DNA of 64,000 bases. Origin: a virus (Duplodnaviria; Caudoviricetes). The translations under genes were made by a program, and so were the position numbers. The stretch is from IMG/VR virus record IMGVR_UViG_3300021400_000491, positions 1 through 64,000 of that record. One strand, given 5' to 3'. Of this stretch, positions 3,644-27,219 are shown piece after piece. The notes under the pieces are model-generated. The model did not search any database. It was not told where the DNA came from and worked only from the letters and a program-made list of their open reading frames with translations. Position 1 is the stretch's first letter, and every line of letters begins with the position of its first letter.

Positions 3644-6061
3644 ATGGCAAGAATAATGAATCTGGGAGTATGGCACAAGGCTTATATGCTTGAAATTATG
3701 GGGCTACAAAAAGAAGACGGTTTTAGCCTTAGTTCTGCTTTGAATTTCAGCGGTTCAGAAGTGTTTACTTTTGCCTTGCCTCCAGAAGCGGAAGATTTTG
3801 ACTATTCTCAAAGAGTGACCGAAACAAAGACTTTCGGCGGTGCTGTATTCGATGATTACGGCAACGATACTTTCAAAATTACCATTTCCGGCTCTACAGT
3901 AAACAATGAAAAGAAACTTATTTACAGGGGAACAAAAGCAGTTCCCGAATATCTGACAGGCGAAAAAGAAATATTCAAGTTGCGTGATTTACTCTACAGA
4001 AGCGGGAAACTTGAAAACCTTGAAGGAAAGAAAGTCTATCTGTATGACCTTTCTAAGATGTCGGCTTTGCAGATTGCAGCCGGAAGCCCTTCTAAAAATA
4101 GCTGGTGGCGGGTACAGATTAAGTCACTCAAAATCAAAAGGTCAAAAGACAAGCCATTTACATACAATTACACACTCGAAATGATTGGATATTATGAGGA
4201 CAAGAAATCAATTCCAAGTCTTTTCGGTGGCGGTGTAGCTGATTTTATTTCCGGGGCGCAAAATGTTCTTGAAACTATCAACACAGCCTTTGCAACGGTT
4301 GAAATGGCAGCAGGGCTTTGTGCTGATATTAAAGCAAAAATAGACGAAACTAGCAAACTTATAGAAAACATTGACAATCCACAAGAAGCAATTCAAGTTA
4401 TAGGTGGCTTTGAAAGGGCTTTAATTGGTACATCTACCGTAAATGCCACTTATAATTCAGCAAAATCATGTGCCGCCTTATGTGGAAAATTAACAGAATT
4501 CAATGATGCAATGGGGCTTTCTGATGATACATCGAAGAGCGGAAGCATAAGCGAAGATGAAAAGTTTATCGTAACATTTGACGCAAACGGCGGACATTTT
4601 ATTGTCAAAGAAGAAGAGGTAGACAAGATAACAGAATCGGTTTCTTATTCTCAATCTGCAACAAAGCCGGAAACTGACCCGACAAGAACGAATTACGAAT
4701 TCGCTTATTGGTATCAGCTTTCAAGCCCGGACACAGAATTCAATTTCAAAGACACACCGATTAAGGCTGATATTATTCTTTTTGCAAAATGGGTACAGAA
4801 AAAAGCCGTTGTCACTTTCAATTCTCGCGGTGGTTCTGCTGTTGATTCGCAGACGGTTGATATTGGCGGAAAAGCCACAAAGCCGGAAACTGACCCGACA
4901 AGAGCAGGATATAACTTTACTCAATGGTGTTCAAATTATGCGGCAACTATCGCCTTTAATTTTGATACCGTGATAAATGAAGATACGACTATCTATGCTG
5001 CATGGGCAAGAATAACGGCGGTTACTGTCACATTCGACAGCAAGGGCGGTTCTGATGTTCCTTCGCAGAGTGTAGAGCCGGGAAATAAAGTTGTAAAGCC
5101 GGATAATCCGACTAAAGATAATTGTGTTTTTGGCGGCTGGTTTTCGGACGCTGAGTGTACAACGGAATTTGATTTCAGCCAGAATATCACTTCATCTATT
5201 ACTCTTTATGCAAAGTTTACACAGAGCTATTTCGATGTGACTTTTGACGCAAACGGCGGAAGTGCGGTAGAAAAGCAGACTGTAATAGGTGGTGGTACGG
5301 CAACAATCCCGGAACAACCGACAAAAGACGGTTACACTTTTGATTTCTGGTGTACAGATTCGGGGGCAACAAACGAATTCGACTTTACAACACCGATTAC
5401 GGCAGATACCACACTTTACGCAAGGTGGGTTTTGAATCAGTACACAGTAGCATTTAACAGTAACGGCGGAAGCAGCGTACAAAGCCAGAGCGTAGAGCAT
5501 GGAAAACTCGTTGTATTCCCGATTATGCCGACAAAGACAAACTACTCATTCTTTATGTGGTGTAAGGATAAATACCTTGAAGAAGAATTTAGTTTCTCAA
5601 CGCCTGTTACATCTGATTTGACCTTATACGCTCGCTGGTTCGGAAGTTCTTATAGTTTTGCTTTCGATTCTAACGGCGGTAATACTATTCCGACACAGAC
5701 GATTGAGAACGGCAAGAAAGCAACAAGAGTTGTACCTGCAAAGGCAGGAAACACTTTTGAAGGCTGGTTCTCTGATGAAGAACTAACAAAAGAATTCAGC
5801 TTTGACACGGCGATTGTGCATGACATGACTGTTTGGGCGAAATGGCAGCCGGACACATTCACGGTTACTTTTGAATCTAACGGCGGTTCGGAAGTAGACC
5901 CACAGACTATTGAATACGGAAACACGGTAACACAGCCGGACAATCCAACTAAGAGCGGAAGCGCATTTAGTGGCTGGGATTCTGATGAAGAACTGACACA
6001 GGGCTATGATTTTAGTAGTTCTGTTACATCTGATATAACGCTTTACGCAAAATGGAGCTGA
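3644..6061 (+). CDS. Tail/baseplate initiator-like protein with 7 InlB B (Listeria-Bacteroides) repeats
   Basis: N-terminal FTFALPPE..TETKTFGG..ITISGST domain; 7 repeats of about 70 aa, VTFDxNGG..PT(K/R)xGYxFxxW..FDF..ITxDxTLYAKW. Confidence 0.8.
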   Translation: MARIMNLGVWHKAYMLEIMGLQKEDGFSLSSALNFSGSEVFTFALPPEAEDFDYSQRVTETKTFGGAVFDDYGNDTFKITISGSTVNNEKKLIYRGTKAVPEYLTGEKEIFKLRDLLYRSGKLENLEGKKVYLYDLSKMSALQIAAGSPSKNSWWRVQIKSLKIKRSKDKPFTYNYTLEMIGYYEDKKSIPSLFGGGVADFISGAQNVLETINTAFATVEMAAGLCADIKAKIDETSKLIENIDNPQEAIQVIGGFERALIGTSTVNATYNSAKSCAALCGKLTEFNDAMGLSDDTSKSGSISEDEKFIVTFDANGGHFIVKEEEVDKITESVSYSQSATKPETDPTRTNYEFAYWYQLSSPDTEFNFKDTPIKADIILFAKWVQKKAVVTFNSRGGSAVDSQTVDIGGKATKPETDPTRAGYNFTQWCSNYAATIAFNFDTVINEDTTIYAAWARITAVTVTFDSKGGSDVPSQSVEPGNKVVKPDNPTKDNCVFGGWFSDAECTTEFDFSQNITSSITLYAKFTQSYFDVTFDANGGSAVEKQTVIGGGTATIPEQPTKDGYTFDFWCTDSGATNEFDFTTPITADTTLYARWVLNQYTVAFNSNGGSSVQSQSVEHGKLVVFPIMPTKTNYSFFMWCKDKYLEEEFSFSTPVTSDLTLYARWFGSSYSFAFDSNGGNTIPTQTIENGKKATRVVPAKAGNTFEGWFSDEELTKEFSFDTAIVHDMTVWAKWQPDTFTVTFESNGGSEVDPQTIEYGNTVTQPDNPTKSGSAFSGWDSDEELTQGYDFSSSVTSDITLYAKWS
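4560..6058 (+). repeat. Seven tandem coding repeats of about 210 bp (InlB B-repeat)
   Basis: Protein-level repeats; exact 27-bp DNA duplicate ACAAAGCCGGAAACTGACCCGACAAGA at 4661 and 4877. Confidence 0.85.
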
Positions 6062-6795
6062 TTATGATGTTAGAAACTGATGATGATAAGAAAGATTCTC
6101 TGATTGACGCGGAAACAGAGTTGAATTCTTGCGTATGTAAAATTGTTGCAGCCGTAAAACAGAAACAGACGATGTACGAGCCTGTTGTTTATGTTGATAC
6201 AGAAGGAAATGACGCTATCGCTTATGTGTACGATTCCCGGAAAATCCGCATGAGTTCAACAATGACGCTTGATAAACTCGCCGAAAAGTTTTTCGGAAAT
6301 GCGGATTATGCAAGTCTTATTGCTTACTACAACAATATTCAGAATGAGCATGAAATAGAAGCAGGAACGATTATAAAGATTCCTATTCTTTCGCCAGACG
6401 AATCAAACGCAAACAACCGTATCTATGCCATTCCGGGAGATACTGACAATTACGGTCGTGACATTGCGCTTGATGATGAGGGCGATTTTGCCGTACAGAA
6501 CGGAGATTTTGCCACAACAAGCAGCGTTGAAAACCTTAATCAAGCTATCGCAATGCGCCTTACAACAGCTTCGGAAAAACGCATAAGGTACAACGCTTAC
6601 GGTATCAAGGCACAAATCGGAGAAGAAGCCGTAAAGAATTACCTTTTGAGTACGGTTGAGCAGACTGTTTTAGCTGACCCTCGCGTAATGGAAATCAACG
6701 AGATTTCGGCAAGCAGCGACAATGACAAGATTTATATTGCCGTGGATTACACGGATATAAACGGAAATAAACAAAAAATGAATGAAGAGGTGTAA
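6052..6795 (+). CDS. LysM-like plus gp25/GPW-like baseplate wedge protein
   Basis: TLDKLAEKFFGNADYASLIAYYN..GTIIKIP (LysM-like), then GRDIALD..ENLNQAIAMRLTT..DPRV (gp25-like). Confidence 0.7.
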   Translation: MELIMMLETDDDKKDSLIDAETELNSCVCKIVAAVKQKQTMYEPVVYVDTEGNDAIAYVYDSRKIRMSSTMTLDKLAEKFFGNADYASLIAYYNNIQNEHEIEAGTIIKIPILSPDESNANNRIYAIPGDTDNYGRDIALDDEGDFAVQNGDFATTSSVENLNQAIAMRLTTASEKRIRYNAYGIKAQIGEEAVKNYLLSTVEQTVLADPRVMEINEISASSDNDKIYIAVDYTDINGNKQKMNEEV

Positions 6796-6797
6796 AT

Positions 6798-7871
6798 ATG
6801 GCAGACATCAAAAGATACGATGAACTTATGGAAGAAGCCTGCGCGAATATGATTGCAAGGCAGAACAAGATAACCGACTTTAACGAAGGTTCTATCATTC
6901 ACACGATTTTAGACACTTTTTGCCGCATTGTGGAAAGAGTGTATATTGCCATTCGTTCCGGGTTCAATCAAGGCTTGATTATGCTGATTTATTCCGTATT
7001 TAAGTTTGAGAAGAAAAGCGGAACTTATGCAAGCGGAAAAGTAACATTCAGCCGGGCTAGTGCATTGGACGCAAGAACGGTTATTCCTTCGGGCGTGAAG
7101 GTTTCGGGGAATGGTTTTAATTTTGTAACAACGGAAGCCGGAGCTATTGAAGCTGGCGCGGTTGATTCTGATGAAATCACGATAAAGGCAGAAGAAGCCG
7201 GAAGTGACTATAACTTGGAAGCTGGGGCAATTACAAGTATTGATTCATCTGTACCTAGCGACATTTCAGCCGTAACAAACAAAAACGCAATCACAGGCGG
7301 AACAAACGAAGAAACAGACGCGGAAGTAGAAGAACGGTTTACAAAGAAACTCGCCGGACTTTCCGGCACAAATCTTTACGGCATTGAGGACGCAGCTTTA
7401 AGCGTTGATTCTGTACGCTCTGTATCGGTAAAGAATCACAAGCCACCGTTGAAGAATGTTTATCATGTTTCGGTTTATGTTGACGATGGCTCTGGAACGG
7501 CAAGCGATGAACTTTTGCAGGAAGTGAAGAAAGCCGTTGAAGGAACGGAAACGCAGAACGGACACCTTGCACCGGGAGTAAACGCCCGCTATCTTGCTCC
7601 AACCGCCGTACCTGTTGATTTTGAGATTGAAGTTTCTACAGGTGATGTTGATACGGCAGAAACACAGGCAGAGATTAAAAAGATTGTTCAATCTTATGTA
7701 AATTCGCTCCGTATTGGCGGTACGGTTATTCTTTCAACGATTGTCGCAAAAATCCGGGCATTGTCTTATGTGTCTGATGTTACGATTAAATCACCGACTG
7801 AAAACTTTACCGTAAATAGTGAGCAGATTGCACGGTTTGGAAACGCAGAAATTACAGTTGTGGAGAGTTAA
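6798..7871 (+). CDS. Baseplate J-like protein
   Basis: ITDFNEGS, ITGGTNEETDAEVEERF, EAGSDYN motifs of the Baseplate_J family. Confidence 0.9.
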   Translation: MADIKRYDELMEEACANMIARQNKITDFNEGSIIHTILDTFCRIVERVYIAIRSGFNQGLIMLIYSVFKFEKKSGTYASGKVTFSRASALDARTVIPSGVKVSGNGFNFVTTEAGAIEAGAVDSDEITIKAEEAGSDYNLEAGAITSIDSSVPSDISAVTNKNAITGGTNEETDAEVEERFTKKLAGLSGTNLYGIEDAALSVDSVRSVSVKNHKPPLKNVYHVSVYVDDGSGTASDELLQEVKKAVEGTETQNGHLAPGVNARYLAPTAVPVDFEIEVSTGDVDTAETQAEIKKIVQSYVNSLRIGGTVILSTIVAKIRALSYVSDVTIKSPTENFTVNSEQIARFGNAEITVVES

Positions 7872-7873
7872 AA

Positions 7874-9163
7874 ATGAAACTTGGCGATTTTATAAAAAGT
7901 CCTTTTTCTACTCTCATAAACAGAAAAGGAATCATATTCAAAGCTCTTCTTGCTGACAATGGAAACGGCACAATGGAAAAGCTGATTTCTGGTGTTGAAA
8001 CTTGTCGCTCTGAATGGTGTAACGACACGGATTTTTACAACATGAGCGGTGAACGCTTTGAAAAATGCGCCGCATTGTTCAGCGTTCTTAAAAGAATGTA
8101 TGAAGAAAGTGACGAATCTTTCAAGAACAGAATTGGTTTGCTTTTGCACAGAAACGGTGATGATATTTGGGGCGACAAGTGGAATATCCTTCATATCTTG
8201 CAGACCTACTTTGATACAAAATCGGTATGGATTCGCAACAGCACGGATAAACCTAGCCTTAATATTCTTGCTGACCCGGATTTTGAAAAGATGTCTGCAT
8301 GGGCACTTGAAGGCGGGGCTGCATATTCACAGCAGGCGAATTTCAGCGGTGCTTTGGGTATGGCTTTTTCTTCTGTTGGTTCATGCTCGCAGATTGTTTC
8401 CGTATCACAGGACACTACATATTTTCTTCATTTCTTTGTGCAGGGAAAGATAAGTGTATCTGTAAGGGATAATAACGGTCGCTATTACTGTACGAAAGCG
8501 GGTGATTTCGGAGCATGGCAACAGAATAAATGTGTCGCAACTTTTTCTTCTGATGAATGGGATGCTAAAAGCCTGTTCTTTATTACTGATTCTGATGTCA
8601 GCGCGGTGACAATCACTTTTGAATATGTGGACATTGAAACATACCTTGATTATACAAGGCTTTTTGCAATGGACGGAAGCATTACATTCTCTGTAATCGT
8701 TCAGTTCAAAGGCGTTCACAGTGATTCAACGCTTATTCTTGCGCCGGGCGAAGCTGACCCGATTAAAGCTCCTGTTTTGGACTTTGCGGGATTCTTCGCA
8801 GAAGGTACGCAAGATGTAAAAGAAATAGACAGTGCAGACCAGAGCTTCTATGACTTTGATTCTGCTGCTGCAATAGCTGATGTTTCGCCACTTTTAACAG
8901 GTGGGGAAGAGGACTTTATACCGACTGCAAACCTCGACGGCAGGGCGTATATAGAGCTTGATACATGGTGCATGGCGGGCAATACGGACGGCGATGTAAT
9001 CACGATTGATTATGATTCAATGTCTTATTACGACAACGCATTTGTGTATGGAGCTACAGGCACTAAATCGCAGGCAGTTTACGAAGAATTGCTTGAGATT
9101 GTGGCTGCTGCGGGAACAACGCCATTCATTGAGCTAGTCACTCGTGAAAGTGCGGAAGAATAA
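7874..9163 (+). CDS. Baseplate wedge (gpI-like) protein with beta-sandwich/carbohydrate-binding-like insert
   Basis: Follows J; N-terminal LKRMYEESDESFKNRI pattern; NILADPDFE..W beta-rich domain. Confidence 0.55.
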   Translation: MKLGDFIKSPFSTLINRKGIIFKALLADNGNGTMEKLISGVETCRSEWCNDTDFYNMSGERFEKCAALFSVLKRMYEESDESFKNRIGLLLHRNGDDIWGDKWNILHILQTYFDTKSVWIRNSTDKPSLNILADPDFEKMSAWALEGGAAYSQQANFSGALGMAFSSVGSCSQIVSVSQDTTYFLHFFVQGKISVSVRDNNGRYYCTKAGDFGAWQQNKCVATFSSDEWDAKSLFFITDSDVSAVTITFEYVDIETYLDYTRLFAMDGSITFSVIVQFKGVHSDSTLILAPGEADPIKAPVLDFAGFFAEGTQDVKEIDSADQSFYDFDSAAAIADVSPLLTGGEEDFIPTANLDGRAYIELDTWCMAGNTDGDVITIDYDSMSYYDNAFVYGATGTKSQAVYEELLEIVAAAGTTPFIELVTRESAEE

Positions 9164-9184: not shown

Positions 9185-11653
9185 ATGTCTAATTTGGCAG
9201 GAGCGGTAACGCTTGAAAACGAAATCGTGAAAGCGACAGACTTTCAGTATGCTCACGACCAGCAGTATAAGAACATTGCACTTGTACTGAAAACTATTGT
9301 ATCTGGGAGCGGGCATAACTTCATTCTTGGCGGTTCTGTAGCACCATATACAAACGGCGGAATGAATGTACAGGTTGACGGCTTGCTTGCGTATTGTGAC
9401 GCAAACAAGGAAGTAGGAATTGAAACAGAAATGACTAAGCCTGTTTCTGTTGAAGCTGCTGACGACACACTTGACCGTAAGGACATTGTGCAGGTTGCTA
9501 TTTCAGAAGTCGGCTTTGACGAGCAGAGCCGTGCATTTATCGACCCGGACACAAAAGTTAAGACTTTTGAACACATCAACACAAAGAAAAAAGTTGTGCT
9601 GACTATTTCTGTAAAGAAAGGTTCAAACGGTTCTGAAATTGCGCCTGCAGTTGATGAAGGTTGCGTAAAAATCGCTGAAATTTCTGTTCCGGCTGGCACT
9701 CTTAACATTACATCTGACTTGATTGAAAATGTTTCTTCAAGAGTTGCGGGCGGTGAAAATGTGAATTGGACGGCTGATAAAGATTCTACTTTTGCGCCGA
9801 TTTACCTTGCTTCACTCATTCGGAGCTATCTTACACAGCACAATGAGGATGGCACACACAAGAATAATTCCATTGTTGCGGCAATGCTGAAATTCGGCAC
9901 TGAATCCGGCTCAATCAATGCAAGCCTTTTGCCTGTTGGCGAGAGCATGACATTGAATAAGGTTTCTCACGAATCTGTAGAAAGCACAAAAGAGCTTATT
10001 AAGGCTATCGTGACTTTCTGCAATGGTGTCTATGCTTACACAAACAATATTTTCTCACGCTATGAATATCTTGAAGATGTTCCGGCAGCAGTTTCAACAG
10101 AAAATATTGATGTAACCGAAGGTGGGGAAACAACTATTGACGGCGTTTCTGTAACAGCAGGTCAGATTGTTTTCTTGAAAGACCAGACAGACAAAAAAGA
10201 AAACGGCTTGTGGGAAGTTCAGACAGGAAGCTGGAACAGAGCGGACGACTACGAAGAATCGACAACAGCCTTTGACCACAAACTTGTTTTTGCAGCAGCA
10301 GGAACAGTGAATAAGGGGAAGGTTTTCTTTTTGCCGGGCAACACTTACATAATCGGCACTGATGAACTTGATTTTACAGAAGCAAACTTCACTTCTGACA
10401 AACAGGCTCACAAATTCGTTATGCGTGACGAGAACGGACGCGCAAAAATGGCAGAGCCGGAAGAAGATGATGATATTGCTACAAAGCATTATACAGATTC
10501 ACAGGTAGCCGCTCTTGATACAACTATCGGTCGTGGTGTAAGAAATATCTGGTTTCCTCGTAAAAGATGGTTGCGTTTTGACTTCTCTGATTCTAGCCAT
10601 AAATCGGTTAAAATTGACAAGGGTGTTTATATTCCGCTTGATTCAAGCCGTGTATTCTATGCAGACACAGAAAAACACATTGATTTGTCGGAGTATTTAA
10701 CACTCGCAGGTAAAGATTATTATATTTACCTTGTACCGAATGGCGAAGGAACAAAATTTGTAGCTTCTATCAATTCATCAGCTCCTAGCGATGTTTCGGA
10801 AAATTACACAACTGAAAATACTCGCAGAATCGGACAGCTCCACACGGAATGTGTAGCAATTCCTGCTGACACAACTATGCGTCACAAAGATTCTACGGCT
10901 ATAACAGATATTCAGCCTATGCTTTTGATTCCTTATACTGACGAAGATTCAGACTTTAAGGAATTCTACACAAAAACACCTACTAACATTACAACAGGAA
11001 CAAACTTCAACACTTTCACTGTACCTCACCCTCTTGCTGGTTGGAGCGCTGGTGATATTATCCCGGAAAGTATTTTCTGTATCGGATTTATGCCGCTTTC
11101 TTCTGCCGATGGAATGTTCTATGTAAAAGAGCTTGATGTAGCTATAGACATTTATTTGCAAAGTGGAAGAGGAAGTCTTACAAAATCTGTTTACGGTGGT
11201 GCAACAACAAGAAGTAGAGCGCAGGTAAATCATACAGACGATATGCTTGCAGTCGGTAAACAGCTTCTTTCTGACGCTGAATTTACACTTGGAGCTATGG
11301 GAAGTAACGAGCAGACATCTATATCTGGTGCTGCTGAATCGTCAATTACTACCGCAGGTGGTCATGTAGATTCTGCTGGTCGCCGTATGGTCAGCGCAAG
11401 AGGTGGCGAGGACTTCTGTGGTGGAGTATGGCAATGGCTTAGAGATGTTTCTGCTAACGGCGGTTCTGATTGGTCAGATTATGCAGGTGGTGTAAAGTTT
11501 GGTCAAACTTATGGTTCTTCCTACGCCTTGCTGGCGGGCGGCGCTTGGAACAGTTCTTCGAATTGCGGTTCTCGTTCGCGGGGTGGTGACTATTCGCGTG
11601 CCATTGTGTATGCGAATTTCGGGGGGCGCGGGTCGAGCCGCATAAAAGCGTAA
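9185..11653 (+). CDS. Tail fibre / receptor-binding protein, DGR target (Mtd-like C-type lectin C-terminus)
   Basis: Follows baseplate genes; C-terminal GRRMVS.RG.EDFCGGVWQW and ALLAGGAW..SSNCGSRSR..R..V....GGRG; carries VR. Confidence 0.9.
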   Translation: MSNLAGAVTLENEIVKATDFQYAHDQQYKNIALVLKTIVSGSGHNFILGGSVAPYTNGGMNVQVDGLLAYCDANKEVGIETEMTKPVSVEAADDTLDRKDIVQVAISEVGFDEQSRAFIDPDTKVKTFEHINTKKKVVLTISVKKGSNGSEIAPAVDEGCVKIAEISVPAGTLNITSDLIENVSSRVAGGENVNWTADKDSTFAPIYLASLIRSYLTQHNEDGTHKNNSIVAAMLKFGTESGSINASLLPVGESMTLNKVSHESVESTKELIKAIVTFCNGVYAYTNNIFSRYEYLEDVPAAVSTENIDVTEGGETTIDGVSVTAGQIVFLKDQTDKKENGLWEVQTGSWNRADDYEESTTAFDHKLVFAAAGTVNKGKVFFLPGNTYIIGTDELDFTEANFTSDKQAHKFVMRDENGRAKMAEPEEDDDIATKHYTDSQVAALDTTIGRGVRNIWFPRKRWLRFDFSDSSHKSVKIDKGVYIPLDSSRVFYADTEKHIDLSEYLTLAGKDYYIYLVPNGEGTKFVASINSSAPSDVSENYTTENTRRIGQLHTECVAIPADTTMRHKDSTAITDIQPMLLIPYTDEDSDFKEFYTKTPTNITTGTNFNTFTVPHPLAGWSAGDIIPESIFCIGFMPLSSADGMFYVKELDVAIDIYLQSGRGSLTKSVYGGATTRSRAQVNHTDDMLAVGKQLLSDAEFTLGAMGSNEQTSISGAAESSITTAGGHVDSAGRRMVSARGGEDFCGGVWQWLRDVSANGGSDWSDYAGGVKFGQTYGSSYALLAGGAWNSSSNCGSRSRGGDYSRAIVYANFGGRGSSRIKA
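11524..11636 (+). repeat. DGR variable repeat (VR) ending in GC-rich IMH GGGGGGCGCGGGTCGA
   Basis: Aligns ungapped to 11809-11921 (offset 285). Confidence 0.95.
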
Positions 11654-11680
11654 GACCGCACAAAGAAAAAAGAAAAACGA

Positions 11681-11722
11681 CACCGCGTAGCGGTGCTTAG
11701 TGGTGCGGCGTAAGCCGCCCAC
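11681..11722 (+). other. Two GC-rich hairpins downstream of VR (DGR target-recognition cruciforms)
   Basis: CACCGC-GTA-GCGGTG (11681-11695); GTGG(T)GCGGC-GTAA-GCCGCCCAC (11700-11722). Confidence 0.7.
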
Positions 11723-11808
11723 ATTCTAGCTTTATTTGTAGGGATAACAGTAATTGAATCAATCAAATTATTGTTATATATTAAAAGAAGTAGTGAAAGG
11801 TTAAATCG

Positions 11809-11921
11809 CGCCTTGCTGGCGGGCGGCAATTGGAACAATTCTTCGAATTGCGGTTCTCGTGCGCGGAATGGTAACAATTCGCGTGCCAATGTGAATACGA
11901 ATATCGGGGGGCGCGGGTCGA
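11809..11921 (+). ncRNA. DGR template repeat (TR)
   Basis: 10 AAY codons plus ACG and ATC; no other adenines in the coding-frame part. Confidence 0.95.
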
Positions 11922-12036
11922 TACGGGGTAGAGTAACTCCGGCTGAATCTTTCACTCTGGCGGAATGCCTAAACACGAAAAGGAGTGGCAGCCCTACTAG
12001 TAGCAATATGCAAATGCAGGGCTGCCTTTTCTGTCT

Positions 12037-13056
12037 ATGAAAACTTGGGGTAATTTGTGGACTCCGTTTATTACGGAAGATAACTTTGGTATTGCACATA
12101 CATTAGCAGGAAAAGGAAAATCAAAGCAGAAATTAGTACAGGAATTTGAAAAAGATTCTGATGGAAACCTTGCCGAATTAAGGCAAGAAAATATAGACGG
12201 CACTTATCATACATCGAAGTATCAGAGTATGACGATTTATGAGCCGAAAAAGCGTATAATTTATGTATTACCATTCAAAGACAGAATAGAACATCACGCT
12301 ATTGTAAATGTATTAAAACCTTATTACGAGCGTTATTTTATAGCGGATAGTTACGCTTGTCTTGATGGTCGCGGACAACAGGCAGCAGTACAAAGATGTA
12401 TGCAAGCCCTTAGAAGAAATACATTTTGTATGGAAGGTGATATACATCATTTTTATCCGTCAATCTGGCATGACAAACTGTTTAATCAATACAAAGCTAA
12501 AATCAGAGATAACAGATTCCTTGAAGTATTGGAAGATAATATATATTCGTTTCCGGGAGAGAGAAATATCCCGATTGGAAACCTTACAAGTATATGGCAT
12601 GGGAATTTCCATTTAACACAATTAGATTTGTTTTGCAAACATGAGTTAGGCATACATGATTATTTGCGTTATTGTGATAATTTCTGGTTATTCGGCAATG
12701 ATAAAGCATATTTGCATGAGTGCAGAAAACGAATAGAAGAATTTATTTGGGAACAAATGGGATTGGAGTATAGCAAAGCAAATGTATTCAATGTAAAACA
12801 GGGCGTAGATTGTCTTGGCTATAGGCTTTTTGATAATTATATTCTTGTAAGGAAGAGTACGGCAAAGCGTATGAAGAATAACATAGCAAAACTTCCAGAA
12901 CAGTTTGAAGCCGGAGAATTGACCGTAGAACAGTTACGCTCTAAACTTGCAAGTGCTTCTGGTTGGTTACAACACGCCAATGCTCATAATCTTGCAATAA
13001 GTATGAGAATAGATGAAATAAGGGAAAAGTATATTCCATTGAATACAGCAGCATAG
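12037..13056 (+). CDS. DGR reverse transcriptase with atypical YCDN motif
   Basis: KKRII..PFKDRIEHHA, FIADSYAC..GRG, GDI.HFYPSI, IPIGNLTS, RYCDNF, GVDCLGY. Confidence 0.93.
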   Translation: MKTWGNLWTPFITEDNFGIAHTLAGKGKSKQKLVQEFEKDSDGNLAELRQENIDGTYHTSKYQSMTIYEPKKRIIYVLPFKDRIEHHAIVNVLKPYYERYFIADSYACLDGRGQQAAVQRCMQALRRNTFCMEGDIHHFYPSIWHDKLFNQYKAKIRDNRFLEVLEDNIYSFPGERNIPIGNLTSIWHGNFHLTQLDLFCKHELGIHDYLRYCDNFWLFGNDKAYLHECRKRIEEFIWEQMGLEYSKANVFNVKQGVDCLGYRLFDNYILVRKSTAKRMKNNIAKLPEQFEAGELTVEQLRSKLASASGWLQHANAHNLAISMRIDEIREKYIPLNTAA

Positions 13057-13074
13057 TGGGAGTATAATAGAGAT

Positions 13075-13377
13075 ATGCACAAGTTTTCAGACTTCGCAAC
13101 GGACGATGAACACCTTGAAGGTGACAAAGTTTCGTTTAAAGATATTATAGACAAGCAAATAATCATTTGGAAATACATTCAAATGCGTTCTCAATTCCAA
13201 TCAGAGTATTGCGCAATGATTCAGTTTTCTTATGAAGAAAAAGGTGTTAAGTATGTCACTTTTTCTTCTAGCGAAGTAATTCTTACGCAGCTTGAAAAGT
13301 ATAAGGAGCAAATGCCTTTTGAAGCTACAATTCAGCAAAGAAAGAGCGGGAAGCATTACTATTACATAATCACATAA
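13075..13377 (+). CDS. Small DGR-associated accessory protein, not Avd-like
   Basis: Directly after RT; F.D.....LEGDK....DI..K.I...C..IQF...V.F.SS.V..QL.KY...PF.A.I pattern, which I recall beside RT in Avd-less DGRs. Confidence 0.6.
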   Translation: MHKFSDFATDDEHLEGDKVSFKDIIDKQIIIWKYIQMRSQFQSEYCAMIQFSYEEKGVKYVTFSSSEVILTQLEKYKEQMPFEATIQQRKSGKHYYYIIT

Positions 13378-14656: not shown

Positions 14657-14930
14657 ACTTCTTCTGATTGTTTGCGCCGTTTTTCTTTTTGCAGCTTTGA
14701 TTTTCTTTTTTTTGTGGCGGCTCTCTGTTGGCAAGAGAAAGTCGCAGAAGGAAACGATTGACAAGCTCGTGCAGCAGATAAACGAAGCGAAACAGACGAA
14801 TTCCGAATTGGAATACACGATTAGTGTTCTGAAAAAGAACAGGGAGAAAGCAAATGAAAAAATCAATGATTTGCATAATGGCGATGTTCTTGGCAATGCT
14901 CTTGATAGGTTGCACAAGCACAAAGGTTGA
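14640..14930 (+). CDS. Inner-membrane spanin (Rz-like)
   Basis: N-terminal TM, then coiled coil; overlaps lipoprotein gene. Confidence 0.65.
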   Translation: MTAAIKLLLIVCAVFLFAALIFFFLWRLSVGKRKSQKETIDKLVQQINEAKQTNSELEYTISVLKKNREKANEKINDLHNGDVLGNALDRLHKHKG

Positions 14931-15132
14931 GTACATCGAAAAGCCTTATTTGCCAGAACTGAACTTTCCTTTTTTTCCCGAATTGTACGGCGATGTAAGA
15001 AACCCGGACGACACAGTAACAGTGCCGGGAGATTGGATTATCCAGATTAGTGACTTCCAGATTTACTATGAGGAATTGGAAGATAACTACAACGACTTGA
15101 AAAAGAAGTATAAGGGAGAAAGTGACAAATGA
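14854..15132 (+). CDS. Outer-membrane lipoprotein spanin (Rz1-like)
   Basis: Signal peptide with lipobox LIG-C, proline-rich mature region; RBS AGGGAG. Confidence 0.7.
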   Translation: MKKSMICIMAMFLAMLLIGCTSTKVEYIEKPYLPELNFPFFPELYGDVRNPDDTVTVPGDWIIQISDFQIYYEELEDNYNDLKKKYKGESDK

Positions 15133-15554
15133 GCATGACATTAACACAGTTCATAAACACATACAAGGGTACGAAAGTTGATTACAAAGACGAAAACTTC
15201 AAGGGTGACGGCTCTTTTCAGTGCGTAGATTTGGCGCGACAGTATTACAAAGATGTTCTGAATGTTCCGCAGTTTCCGGCTCTCGGTGCTGACGGCGGGG
15301 CAAAGGATATTATCAAGAATCCGGGCAGCAAGCTGAAAGTCATAAAAGAAGATTTGCTTGCTGATTATTCTGCAGGCGATGTCCTTGTCTGGGGAGCGAG
15401 CAAAACAAACAAATACGGTCATGTCGCTATTCTTGTGGCAATCTACAACACGAAGTATTTCATTGTTCTTGAACAGGACGGCTTCAAGCAGGACGGCGTA
15501 AAACTTGCTTTCAGAAGCCGTGAGAATCTTTTGGGCGGATTGTACAAGGCTTAA
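15129..15554 (+). CDS. CHAP-domain endolysin
   Basis: QCVDLAR (catalytic Cys), AGDVLVW, YGHVAI (catalytic His), VLEQD. Confidence 0.88.
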   Translation: MSMTLTQFINTYKGTKVDYKDENFKGDGSFQCVDLARQYYKDVLNVPQFPALGADGGAKDIIKNPGSKLKVIKEDLLADYSAGDVLVWGASKTNKYGHVAILVAIYNTKYFIVLEQDGFKQDGVKLAFRSRENLLGGLYKA

Positions 15555-26403: not shown

Positions 26404-27219
26404 TTACTCGCTATCAGCGGTAAACTCGAAAGCGGGCGCAACGCCGCCATCACTATTACTTGCACCGCTGCCGCTGCTATTACCATAGTCGTTGACACGG
26501 CAAAAGTAGGAAGCGTTCGACGCATAAGGCGTACCGAGCCACCACCACCAAGTATCGTTTTCAAAAGCAAGAACTTTTATTCTGTTTTTAATTGCCTTGA
26601 AATACGGCATAAAATCCTTACTGTCCTCATTGAAAACATTGTCTTTTGAGAGCAGGGAAACATTGACTTTTCCTGTGTATTCTTTGAGGGCTTCTGCAAA
26701 GTGTTTGGCAAGGTAGACACCAAGTGGAGTTTCATCAAACGGCATGCCGGATTCTTCATAATCAACATCATGTCTGAAAAGAATATCCTCAAAGTTAAAA
26801 ACTACACGGTGTGGCTCTACATGAACCACTGTAATCACGACATTTTCAAGGTCGATTTTGTCAAATTCTTCACCTTCGCAATCTTTGACGGCTGGAACTT
26901 TGAAATGTGGTATAAGAATCTGCTGACCGGGCTTAATATTCGCATCCGCTACACCTTCATTGCAGCATTTTTTGATTGTTGAAAAAACATCAGTTGTAAA
27001 AATATCCGCAGGTGGAATAGTTTTTACTTCTGGGTGTTCAATCTTTGCAGGATTTGCCGAAGCAGGTTCTGCAATATCAATCTGATAGACATTTCCGCCA
27101 CCAAAGGCGTTTTTCTTTGTGATATTGAGAATTTCAGCTCCCAAATCCTCAATCGACTGTGCAAGTAATGCAACTTTCATATTATTTTCCTCCTTCATAT
27201 AGGATATATTTGTTTTCAA
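26404..27219 (-). CDS. DUF6273-like protein with DGR VR-like C-terminus
   Basis: Ends WWWWLGTPYASNASYFCRVNDYGNSSGSGASNSDGGVAPAF. Confidence 0.7.
   Translation of the reverse strand: MKTNISYMKEENNMKVALLAQSIEDLGAEILNITKKNAFGGGNVYQIDIAEPASANPAKIEHPEVKTIPPADIFTTDVFSTIKKCCNEGVADANIKPGQQILIPHFKVPAVKDCEGEEFDKIDLENVVITVVHVEPHRVVFNFEDILFRHDVDYEESGMPFDETPLGVYLAKHFAEALKEYTGKVNVSLLSKDNVFNEDSKDFMPYFKAIKNRIKVLAFENDTWWWWLGTPYASNASYFCRVNDYGNSSGSGASNSDGGVAPAFEFTADSE

Follow-up and report, generated by a model that had tools for sequence, protein, structure and literature searches.

The diversity-generating retroelement (DGR) of Bordetella phage BPP-1 is organised as mtd-avd-TR-Sp-brt and serves to diversify the receptor-binding surface of a tail fibre. 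Its variable repeat (VR) is located at the 3' end of the target gene, AAY codons make up its template repeat (TR), a GC-rich end shared by the two repeats is followed by hairpins, and a structured spacer RNA comes after the TR. The BPP-1 complex of the reverse transcriptase (RT) and the accessory protein Avd needs this spacer for priming (bioRxiv 10.1101/2023.10.23.563531). Avd is present in about 74% of curated DGRs and is not universal; the 2018 survey lists Avd, HRDC, MSL, CH1 and four tentative genes as accessories, reports 29% of DGRs to be without a recognised accessory gene, and notes RT lineages without avd (PMC5758913). Architecture A1 of the same survey has its target upstream of a TR-RT core that lacks Avd (Wu et al. 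2018, PMC5758913). In addition, the virus ANMV-1 (KP703175, locus L131; Paul et al. 2015, PMC4372165) and Caudoviricetes sp. vir525 (BK063673, locus L001) carry cassettes in the order target-TR-RT-small open reading frame (ORF), and in both records the small ORF is annotated only as hypothetical. Here we describe a related cassette in a window of 64,000 nt, the first 64 kb of the 83,270-bp IMG/VR record IMGVR_UViG_3300021400_000491, which is rated complete by CheckV. The cassette is, with high probability, a functional DGR of a tailed phage from ruminant and pig guts, belonging to an Avd-less clade and equipped with an OB-like (oligonucleotide/oligosaccharide-binding) partner and a working RT whose motif C reads YCDN.

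The cassette's parts all lie on the plus strand in the order target-TR-RT-small ORF, with 155 nt between the target stop codon and the TR and 115 nt between the TR end and the RT start. They are as follows.

9185..11653, plus strand: DGR target, an 822-aa tail fibre or receptor-binding protein (Pfam, PHROG, PDB and structural-model matches)
11524..11636, plus strand: VR, codons 781-817 of 822, about 38 codons near the end of the target (repeat alignment)
11619..11636, plus strand: GC-rich 3' end common to VR and TR, TCGGGGGGCGCGGGTCGA, beyond which the repeats diverge (alignment)
11809..11921, plus strand: TR, with 10 AAY codons, ACG and ATC in the VR frame and a single genomic match (repeat alignment)
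11937..12027, plus strand: conserved structured spacer RNA (RNAalifold on 14 clade loci)
12037..13056, plus strand: DGR reverse transcriptase, 339 aa (Pfam RVT_1; phrog_1423, E 7e-94)
13075..13377, plus strand: 100-aa accessory candidate with a predicted OB fold, not Avd (structural model and linkage to the RT clade)

Seen as a DGR that diversifies an Mtd-type tail-fibre protein of a phage, the cassette is an ordinary member of a well-known kind. It shares with BPP-1 a true Mtd homologue as target, a VR at the 3' end of that gene, a TR built of AAY codons, a GC-rich shared end with hairpins behind it, a structured spacer RNA after the TR, and the role of diversifying a receptor-binding surface on the tail fibre. 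It is also like Architecture A1 in its Avd-less TR-RT core and upstream target. Unlike BPP-1, however, the window has no avd between target and TR or elsewhere and instead an OB-like ORF of about 100 aa after the RT; the RT has YCDN in place of YMDD and SI in place of SQ, and the target has a 430-aa N-terminal extension. The departures from the textbook DGR are thus the absence of Avd together with a clade-specific OB-like partner, a covarying spacer RNA of its own, and an RT with YCDN and SI. With other phage DGR RTs the RT shares about 30-35% identity, and with that of vir525 47%; vir525 has a phrog_11262 Mtd-like protein as target, but its RT keeps YCDD and SQ. No GenBank phage matched the cassette in a megablast search. 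The small ORF is recognisable in ANMV-1 (31% identity, E 2e-4) and in vir525 (29%, E 1e-16), although these two records name archaeal hosts (Methanosarcinales and an uncultured archaeon), whereas the host of the phage in the window is probably Treponema, on the basis of related prophages in metagenome-assembled genomes (MAGs). Since viruses of archaeal hosts carry the same cassette as a probable Treponema phage, the RT-accessory pair has crossed very distant hosts.

The VR and TR were found by a repeat search as a direct repeat of 113 nt, gap-free, at an offset of 285 and 89% identical, and they are the sole long direct repeat between positions 8000 and 15000. Compared base by base they differ at 12 positions, 11 of which are adenines in the TR. 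Given 23 adenines among the 113 TR bases, at least 11 of 12 differences at A has a binomial P of 2.4e-7, and a chance duplication as the origin of the pair is rejected (P 2e-7). The lone non-adenine difference (11576, TR G to VR T) is private to this record; the corresponding residue 798 is the TR-encoded Ala in all nine other full-length relatives. When the TR is read in the target frame, 22 adenines occupy codon positions in ten AAY codons, one ACG and one ATC, and no A-to-N substitution at any of them yields a stop, while the 23rd adenine sits in the GC-rich 3' end and is unvaried. The theoretical diversity is 4^22 = 1.8e13 DNA variants and 15^10 x 4 x 4 = 9.2e12 protein variants. Across the 83 kb, the possibility that this TR serves a second VR was considered and rejected: a sequence search of both strands of the entire genome returned no second match to the TR, which therefore has a single VR. 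The shared TCGGGGGGCGCGGGTCGA end holds the position of a homing signal like the initiation of mutagenic homing (IMH) element, and would have that role by analogy with the BPP-1 system (PMC5758913, PMC3240598). The original prediction, made from the letters of the window, had called the locus a DGR and had given a gap-free 113-bp repeat with 12 differences, 11 of them at TR adenines, as well as 22 adenines in 10 AAY codons plus ACG and ATC with about 1.8e13 DNA and about 9e12 protein variants. The base-by-base comparison and the recalculated figures agree with it, and its identification of a DGR stands on the A-specific VR/TR differences, the DGR-type RT (phrog_1423, E 7e-94) and the location of the VR at the 3' end of the target.

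Diversity in the VR is seen in natural populations, and it is restricted to adenine-bearing codons. The 90%-identity cluster of the target holds 10 full-length proteins from separate assemblies, which are 95-98% identical to the protein of the window and represent eight VR alleles. All 12 A-bearing codons vary among the 10 proteins, with 3-6 residues each (mean 4.5), against 62 of 810 other columns, most of which have two alleles. A-to-N changes alone suffice to reach every residue at the 12 codons: AAY codons have residues of the NNY set, ACG has T/A/P and ATC has I/V/F. The proteins P0289 and P0291 differ at one of the 810 other positions, yet at 10 of the 12 A-bearing codons, and P0280 and P0284 differ at four other positions and eight A-bearing codons. 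Contigs of the phage are present in bovine, sheep, pig and other gut metagenomes. They break at the VR in three of four independent gut metagenome runs, one of which has two alternative short contigs across the VR, consistent with VR heterogeneity. As read from these assemblies, the element is active in nature, with a VR that is still turning over. The original prediction had proposed a count of adenine-specific variation in mapped reads, with an invariant VR as the sign of a currently inactive element; the check was made on assembly proteins instead and was positive (eight adenine-limited alleles in ten proteins), and rather than invariance, variation at all 12 A-bearing codons was found across assemblies. 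Separately, target residues 791-792 (11555-11560), which are Ser codons TCT and TCG with no A in the TR, vary between S, T and A in close relatives, suggesting that the TRs of these relatives may carry extra adenines at codons 791-792.

The target that carries this variation is a complete Mtd homologue from about residue 430 to residue 822, ending in a C-type-lectin fold. The Pfam domain mtd_2nd is matched at residues 468-564 (35.8 bits, cut-off 24.6), the tail protein family phrog_11262 at residues 430-818, and the Mtd chains in PDB (1yu4) at residues 671-816 (phmmer E 7e-7). An AlphaFold model of residues 430-822 (pLDDT 87, pTM 0.87) matches Mtd structures 1yu4/1yu0 at full length over about 400 columns (Foldseek E 5e-18, TM 0.67-0.70), and formylglycine-generating enzyme (FGE) and the DGR targets TaqVP and TvpA appear further down the list. 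Homology to Mtd accordingly spans the intermediate and the C-type-lectin domains, and the VR lies at the 3' end of a ligand-binding lectin target. An Mtd-like lectin had been predicted from the start and is corroborated by the profile, phmmer and Foldseek matches; the modelling proposed for the C-terminal domain extended the likeness to the whole length of Mtd. Further upstream in the same protein, residues 298-397 (10076-10375) resemble a capsid decoration protein (PDB 9nx3, E 7e-9) as well as head-decoration PHROGs, and from these matches this domain appears to be a module common to head and tail proteins.

The RT adjoins the TR and belongs to the DGR lineage, and the loci of its nearest relatives have A-biased VR/TR pairs of their own. 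Its motif C is YCDN (codons 212-215, nt 12670-12681) rather than the usual YxDD, and its signature motif is IGNLTSI (nt 12574-12594) rather than [IVL]GxxxSQ, so that neither the canonical YxDD nor the published [I/V/L]GxxxSQ signature (PMC7826257) is present. The Asp of motif A (D135) and the first Asp of motif C (D214) are invariant in 119 homologues, and the second motif C Asp is kept in 108 of the 119. The D-N motif occurs in intact ORFs of nine cluster representatives at 70-98% identity (YCDNFW, with FNDNFW in one), and within the 90% cluster of the RT itself every member read through motif C has YCDN and 12 of 12 have TSI. Because D-N is kept across the subclade, it is a conserved state and not a fresh lesion. 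A second D-N group at 56-59% identity (P0050 and P0069, motif DNFNLY) retains SQ and, from its sequences, may represent an independent origin of YxDN inside the same accessory-bearing clade. SI or SM replaces SQ throughout the subclade of at least 64% identity, and the remaining clade has SQ. The substitution Q187P in bRT left adenine misincorporation unchanged (PMC7826257), and SI is therefore a deviation from the signature and not evidence against function. The most direct comparison is with L051, a prophage in a Treponema MAG with a YCDN RT 75% identical to that of the window, in which 12 of 12 VR/TR differences are at A. The TR scaffold of L051 differs, and the VRs of the window's cluster match the window's own TR. 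As each lineage has thus been diversified on its own TR scaffold, diversification postdates the D-N change. The phage genome has one RT match only, and no paper describing a YxDN-type RT was found in the literature covered, outside which most subscription journals fall.

When all six frames of the complete genome were searched with profiles for Avd (PF05635, PF22296) and HRDC, nothing matched at E up to 1, and the order target-TR-RT-accessory without avd, as originally proposed, is thereby borne out genome-wide. As a positive control, the same search found Avd in four of five viral records with RTs at most 36% identical to that of the window, and in L033, the control record checked for position, Avd lies between VR and TR. 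Avd was found in none of five records from the RT's own clade, three of which are 97-100% complete. An avd hidden between VR and TR of the window was considered and rejected: there are 155 nt, and the only candidate, an 89-aa ORF at 11771-12040 that overlaps the TR, has no Pfam match. In 26 clade loci, VR and TR are 80-325 nt apart.

What accompanies the RT instead is the 100-aa protein. It belongs to a family of at least 244 cluster representatives at E <=1e-3 (exhaustive HMMER), nearly all of 90-130 aa. The protein has no Pfam, NCBIfam or PADLOC match, none of 119 relatives has a Pfam match either, and no solved relative was found by profile search. Linkage to the RT was surveyed in 130 RT loci from viral and genome collections. 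The accessory domain is present with every RT about 40% or more identical to that of the window and with none of the more distant RTs, and it is placed directly after the RT, overlapping the RT end, or fused to it. At least five in-frame fusions are known: P0233 and P0259 are RTs with the accessory domain fused at the C-terminus, and loci L060, L061 and L065 encode further RT-accessory fusions. In the RT tree the accessory bearers form one clade (SH-aLRT 98), in which 37 of 39 RTs bear the accessory and the loci of the other two end at a contig edge. The hosts of the clade comprise Treponema, Desulfovibrio, Muribaculaceae, Clostridia, Rickettsiales and Gastranaerophilales MAGs as well as viruses recorded as archaeal. 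As a side observation, the OB-like ORF is found upstream of the RT, in the usual slot of avd, in L057 (512-934) of a Treponema MAG and in L059 (4384-4683) of an Agathobacter MAG.

The AlphaFold model of the accessory candidate (pLDDT 86) has strands at residues 28-38, 45-52 and 60-64, a helix at 67-75, and strands at 82-91 and 94-99. The order of three strands, helix and two strands in this model is that of OB-fold topology. The best matches in a structural search were mostly OB-fold binders of single-stranded DNA or RNA with middling Z scores of 5-6.4, led by the OB domain of RuvBL2 (6.4), with Rim1 and bacterial single-stranded DNA-binding proteins (SSBs) at 5.6, followed by PriB, Teb1 and editosome OB domains. 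The fold is called OB-like here with moderate confidence. A lead to Phi29_Phage_SSB, which came from one neighbouring cluster (44% of its members), gained no confirmation from a hidden Markov model search. The protein would share with Avd the functional slot of a small protein encoded beside the DGR RT, and Avd and the OB-fold ORF are mutually exclusive in the records sampled. The two are otherwise unlike. Avd is a basic pentameric four-helix bundle (PMC5758913), whereas the protein of the window is a predicted five-stranded beta-barrel with one helix and a pI of 5.9, and it has no sequence match to Avd profiles. The other accessory classes of the survey differ as well, CH1 being 160-169 aa long and acidic (pI 4.7), MSL being MutS-like and HRDC helical (PMC5758913). 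None of these three fits a 100-aa OB-like protein by its description, in a comparison that covers CH1, MSL and HRDC. Its most likely function is to bind single-stranded cDNA or the template RNA and to serve as the helper, as Avd does in BPP-1. In the same body of literature, with most subscription journals outside it, no report of an OB-fold DGR accessory was found.

The second feature peculiar to the clade is the RNA between TR and RT. The 115-nt spacer is kept across the clade as AACUCCGGCUGAA..UUGGCGGAAUGCC..AGGAG followed by a hairpin. In the predicted fold, CUCC (11937-11940) and GGAG (11982-11985) form a helix around a small hairpin, and a hairpin of 9 bp follows downstream (11987-11995 with 12018-12026). 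RNAalifold on the 14 loci predicts 23 pairs; 92% of the cells are paired, a share that drops to 39-49% once partners are shifted by 1-3 columns, in the long helix eight of ten pairs change on both sides, and the observed covariation was reached by none of 500 shuffles. As the alignment and the structure were derived from the same sequences, the test somewhat favours structure, and the compensatory changes are the stronger evidence. The Rfam family RT-14 (RF02921), which likewise adjoins RT genes, aligns at its 3' hairpin and loop (UAGUAGC...GC.AAU) and at the small hairpin before it, but the 51-nt 5' hairpin of the model is missing from the window's spacer. The score of 25.5 bits falls below the gathering cut-off of 48.1, and none of 16 related loci has an Rfam match at gathering. 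By its position the spacer corresponds to the priming spacer of BPP-1 and would, by analogy, have the same role.

Taken as a working DGR, the cassette would operate in the following way. An RNA carrying the TR and the structured spacer (11809-12027) would be made, probably as part of one transcript that also covers the RT and the small ORF. The RT would copy the TR into cDNA, priming presumably from the spacer, with the OB-like protein as helper, and random nucleotides would be inserted opposite template adenines. At the 3' end of the tail-fibre gene this cDNA would then take the place of the VR, with the common GC-rich end, and perhaps also the hairpins that follow it, as guides. In this way the ligand-binding face of an Mtd-type C-type lectin would come in as many as about 9e12 variants, by which receptor binding could be retargeted. 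We consider it reasonably likely that a natural lineage of DGR RTs carries out mutagenic retrohoming with a YxDN motif and that an OB-fold partner and a dedicated spacer RNA take the place of Avd in it.

Several points weigh against this interpretation. The second Asp of YxDD is generally held to be necessary for RT catalysis. The cDNA, the activity of the RT and its contact with the accessory are deduced from sequence and models rather than biochemistry, and the variation in the VR is known at the protein level, from assemblies made separately and not from the reads of a single population. The OB fold is read from topology and from the uniform type of structural matches, which are middling (Z up to 6.4), and a Foldseek search with the accessory model gives nothing below E 0.2. 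Unlike Avd, the accessory is not basic (pI 5.9, with a family median of 7.9). The inference of the host rests on one related prophage in a MAG. Finally, an RT acting in trans keeps a slight probability.

In that last case the VR would be diversified by a canonical YxDD DGR RT of the host or of a co-resident element, and the YCDN protein would be an RNA-binding scaffold. Treponema genomes do have DGRs of their own (T. denticola, PMC4891356), and the tie between this RT and the cDNA is an indirect one. The explanation is nevertheless very unlikely, as the phage genome has a single RT match, a DGR RT needs its cognate TR-spacer RNA (BPP-1, bioRxiv 10.1101/2023.10.23.563531) and the spacer co-evolves with this RT clade, and the invariance of D135 and D214 in 119 homologues is unexpected for a dead enzyme. 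Extremely unlikely, in our judgement, is that the cassette is a recently silenced fossil, in which the D-to-N change killed the RT and left the VR frozen in a favourable state. YCDN for YxDD and SI for SQ would fit such a history, the second Asp being normally regarded as catalytic, but DN is kept in intact ORFs of the nine representatives at 70-98% and of the second group at 56-59%. Moreover, phages that are 1-4 residues apart outside the VR carry different, A-codon-limited VR alleles, which follow the TR scaffold of their own lineage and not that of L051. The role of the 100-aa ORF has its own alternative, namely that it is a phage gene without relation to the DGR, such as a replication SSB, and happens to lie beside the RT of an accessory-free DGR like 'Architecture A' of Wu et al. 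2018. With 29% of curated DGRs having no recognised accessory (PMC5758913), and with a protein that is not basic and has no Pfam family or solved relative, this deserves consideration. It is unlikely, since the ORF accompanies the RT across unrelated backbones and hosts, from Treponema to archaeal-labelled viruses, forms in-frame fusions with the RT at least five times, stays adjacent to the RT even where it shifts upstream (L057, L059), and is absent with every RT outside the clade in the 130 loci.

If a functional YxDN lineage with an OB-like partner is the correct explanation, a metal-binding geometry thought to be obligatory for RTs would be relaxed in it, and this relaxed geometry could be linked to the low efficiency and adenine-specific infidelity of DGR RTs. 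A YCDN RT in elements with VRs that are still turning over questions the need for both aspartates of YxDD. The OB-fold partner and the covarying spacer RNA are candidates for the missing ribonucleoprotein of Avd-less DGRs, and the cassette would offer a second, simpler DGR chassis for engineering. The findings are of relevance to DGRs as programmable mutagenesis tools and to the relation between RT active-site chemistry and selective infidelity.

Two further features are located between the target stop codon and the TR.

11681..11722, plus strand: two GC-rich hairpins 3' of the target stop (fold z -2.7)
11754..11782, plus strand: sigma-70-like promoter pattern TTGAAT-17-TATATT, 27 nt 5' of the TR (pattern scan only)

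The first hairpin (11681-11695) has a 6-bp stem with a GTA loop, and the second (11700-11722) a bulged 9-bp stem with a GTAA loop. The same pair is present in the nearest relatives, L051 and L005, and GC hairpins are found beyond the VR in other clade members. The pair is a candidate for a cruciform target-recognition element or for a terminator. An A-rich run, AAAGAAAAAAGAAAAA, precedes the first hairpin (11660-11696), and its minus-strand reading scores as an intrinsic terminator that points towards the target gene. The promoter pattern is a sequence match and carries no weight as evidence of function.

The genes before the cassette are those of a baseplate.

6798..7871, plus strand: Baseplate J-like wedge protein (Pfam PF04865, E 2e-34; phrog_6 baseplate wedge, E 1e-58)

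It is preceded by a gp25-like wedge ORF (6052-6795) that matches baseplate wedge PHROGs, and a 429-aa protein is encoded between the Baseplate_J gene and the target. The target thus closes the baseplate module, where the original prediction had placed it. Far downstream, an ORF on the minus strand (26404-27219) has a C-terminus that matches PHROGs of unknown function and a Hoc-like head-decoration family; its product was considered as a target of this TR and rejected, the TR having no match there. Shortly past the DGR, at 14854-15554, are an Rz-like spanin match and an amidase/endolysin, and the cassette therefore sits between the baseplate/fibre and lysis modules.

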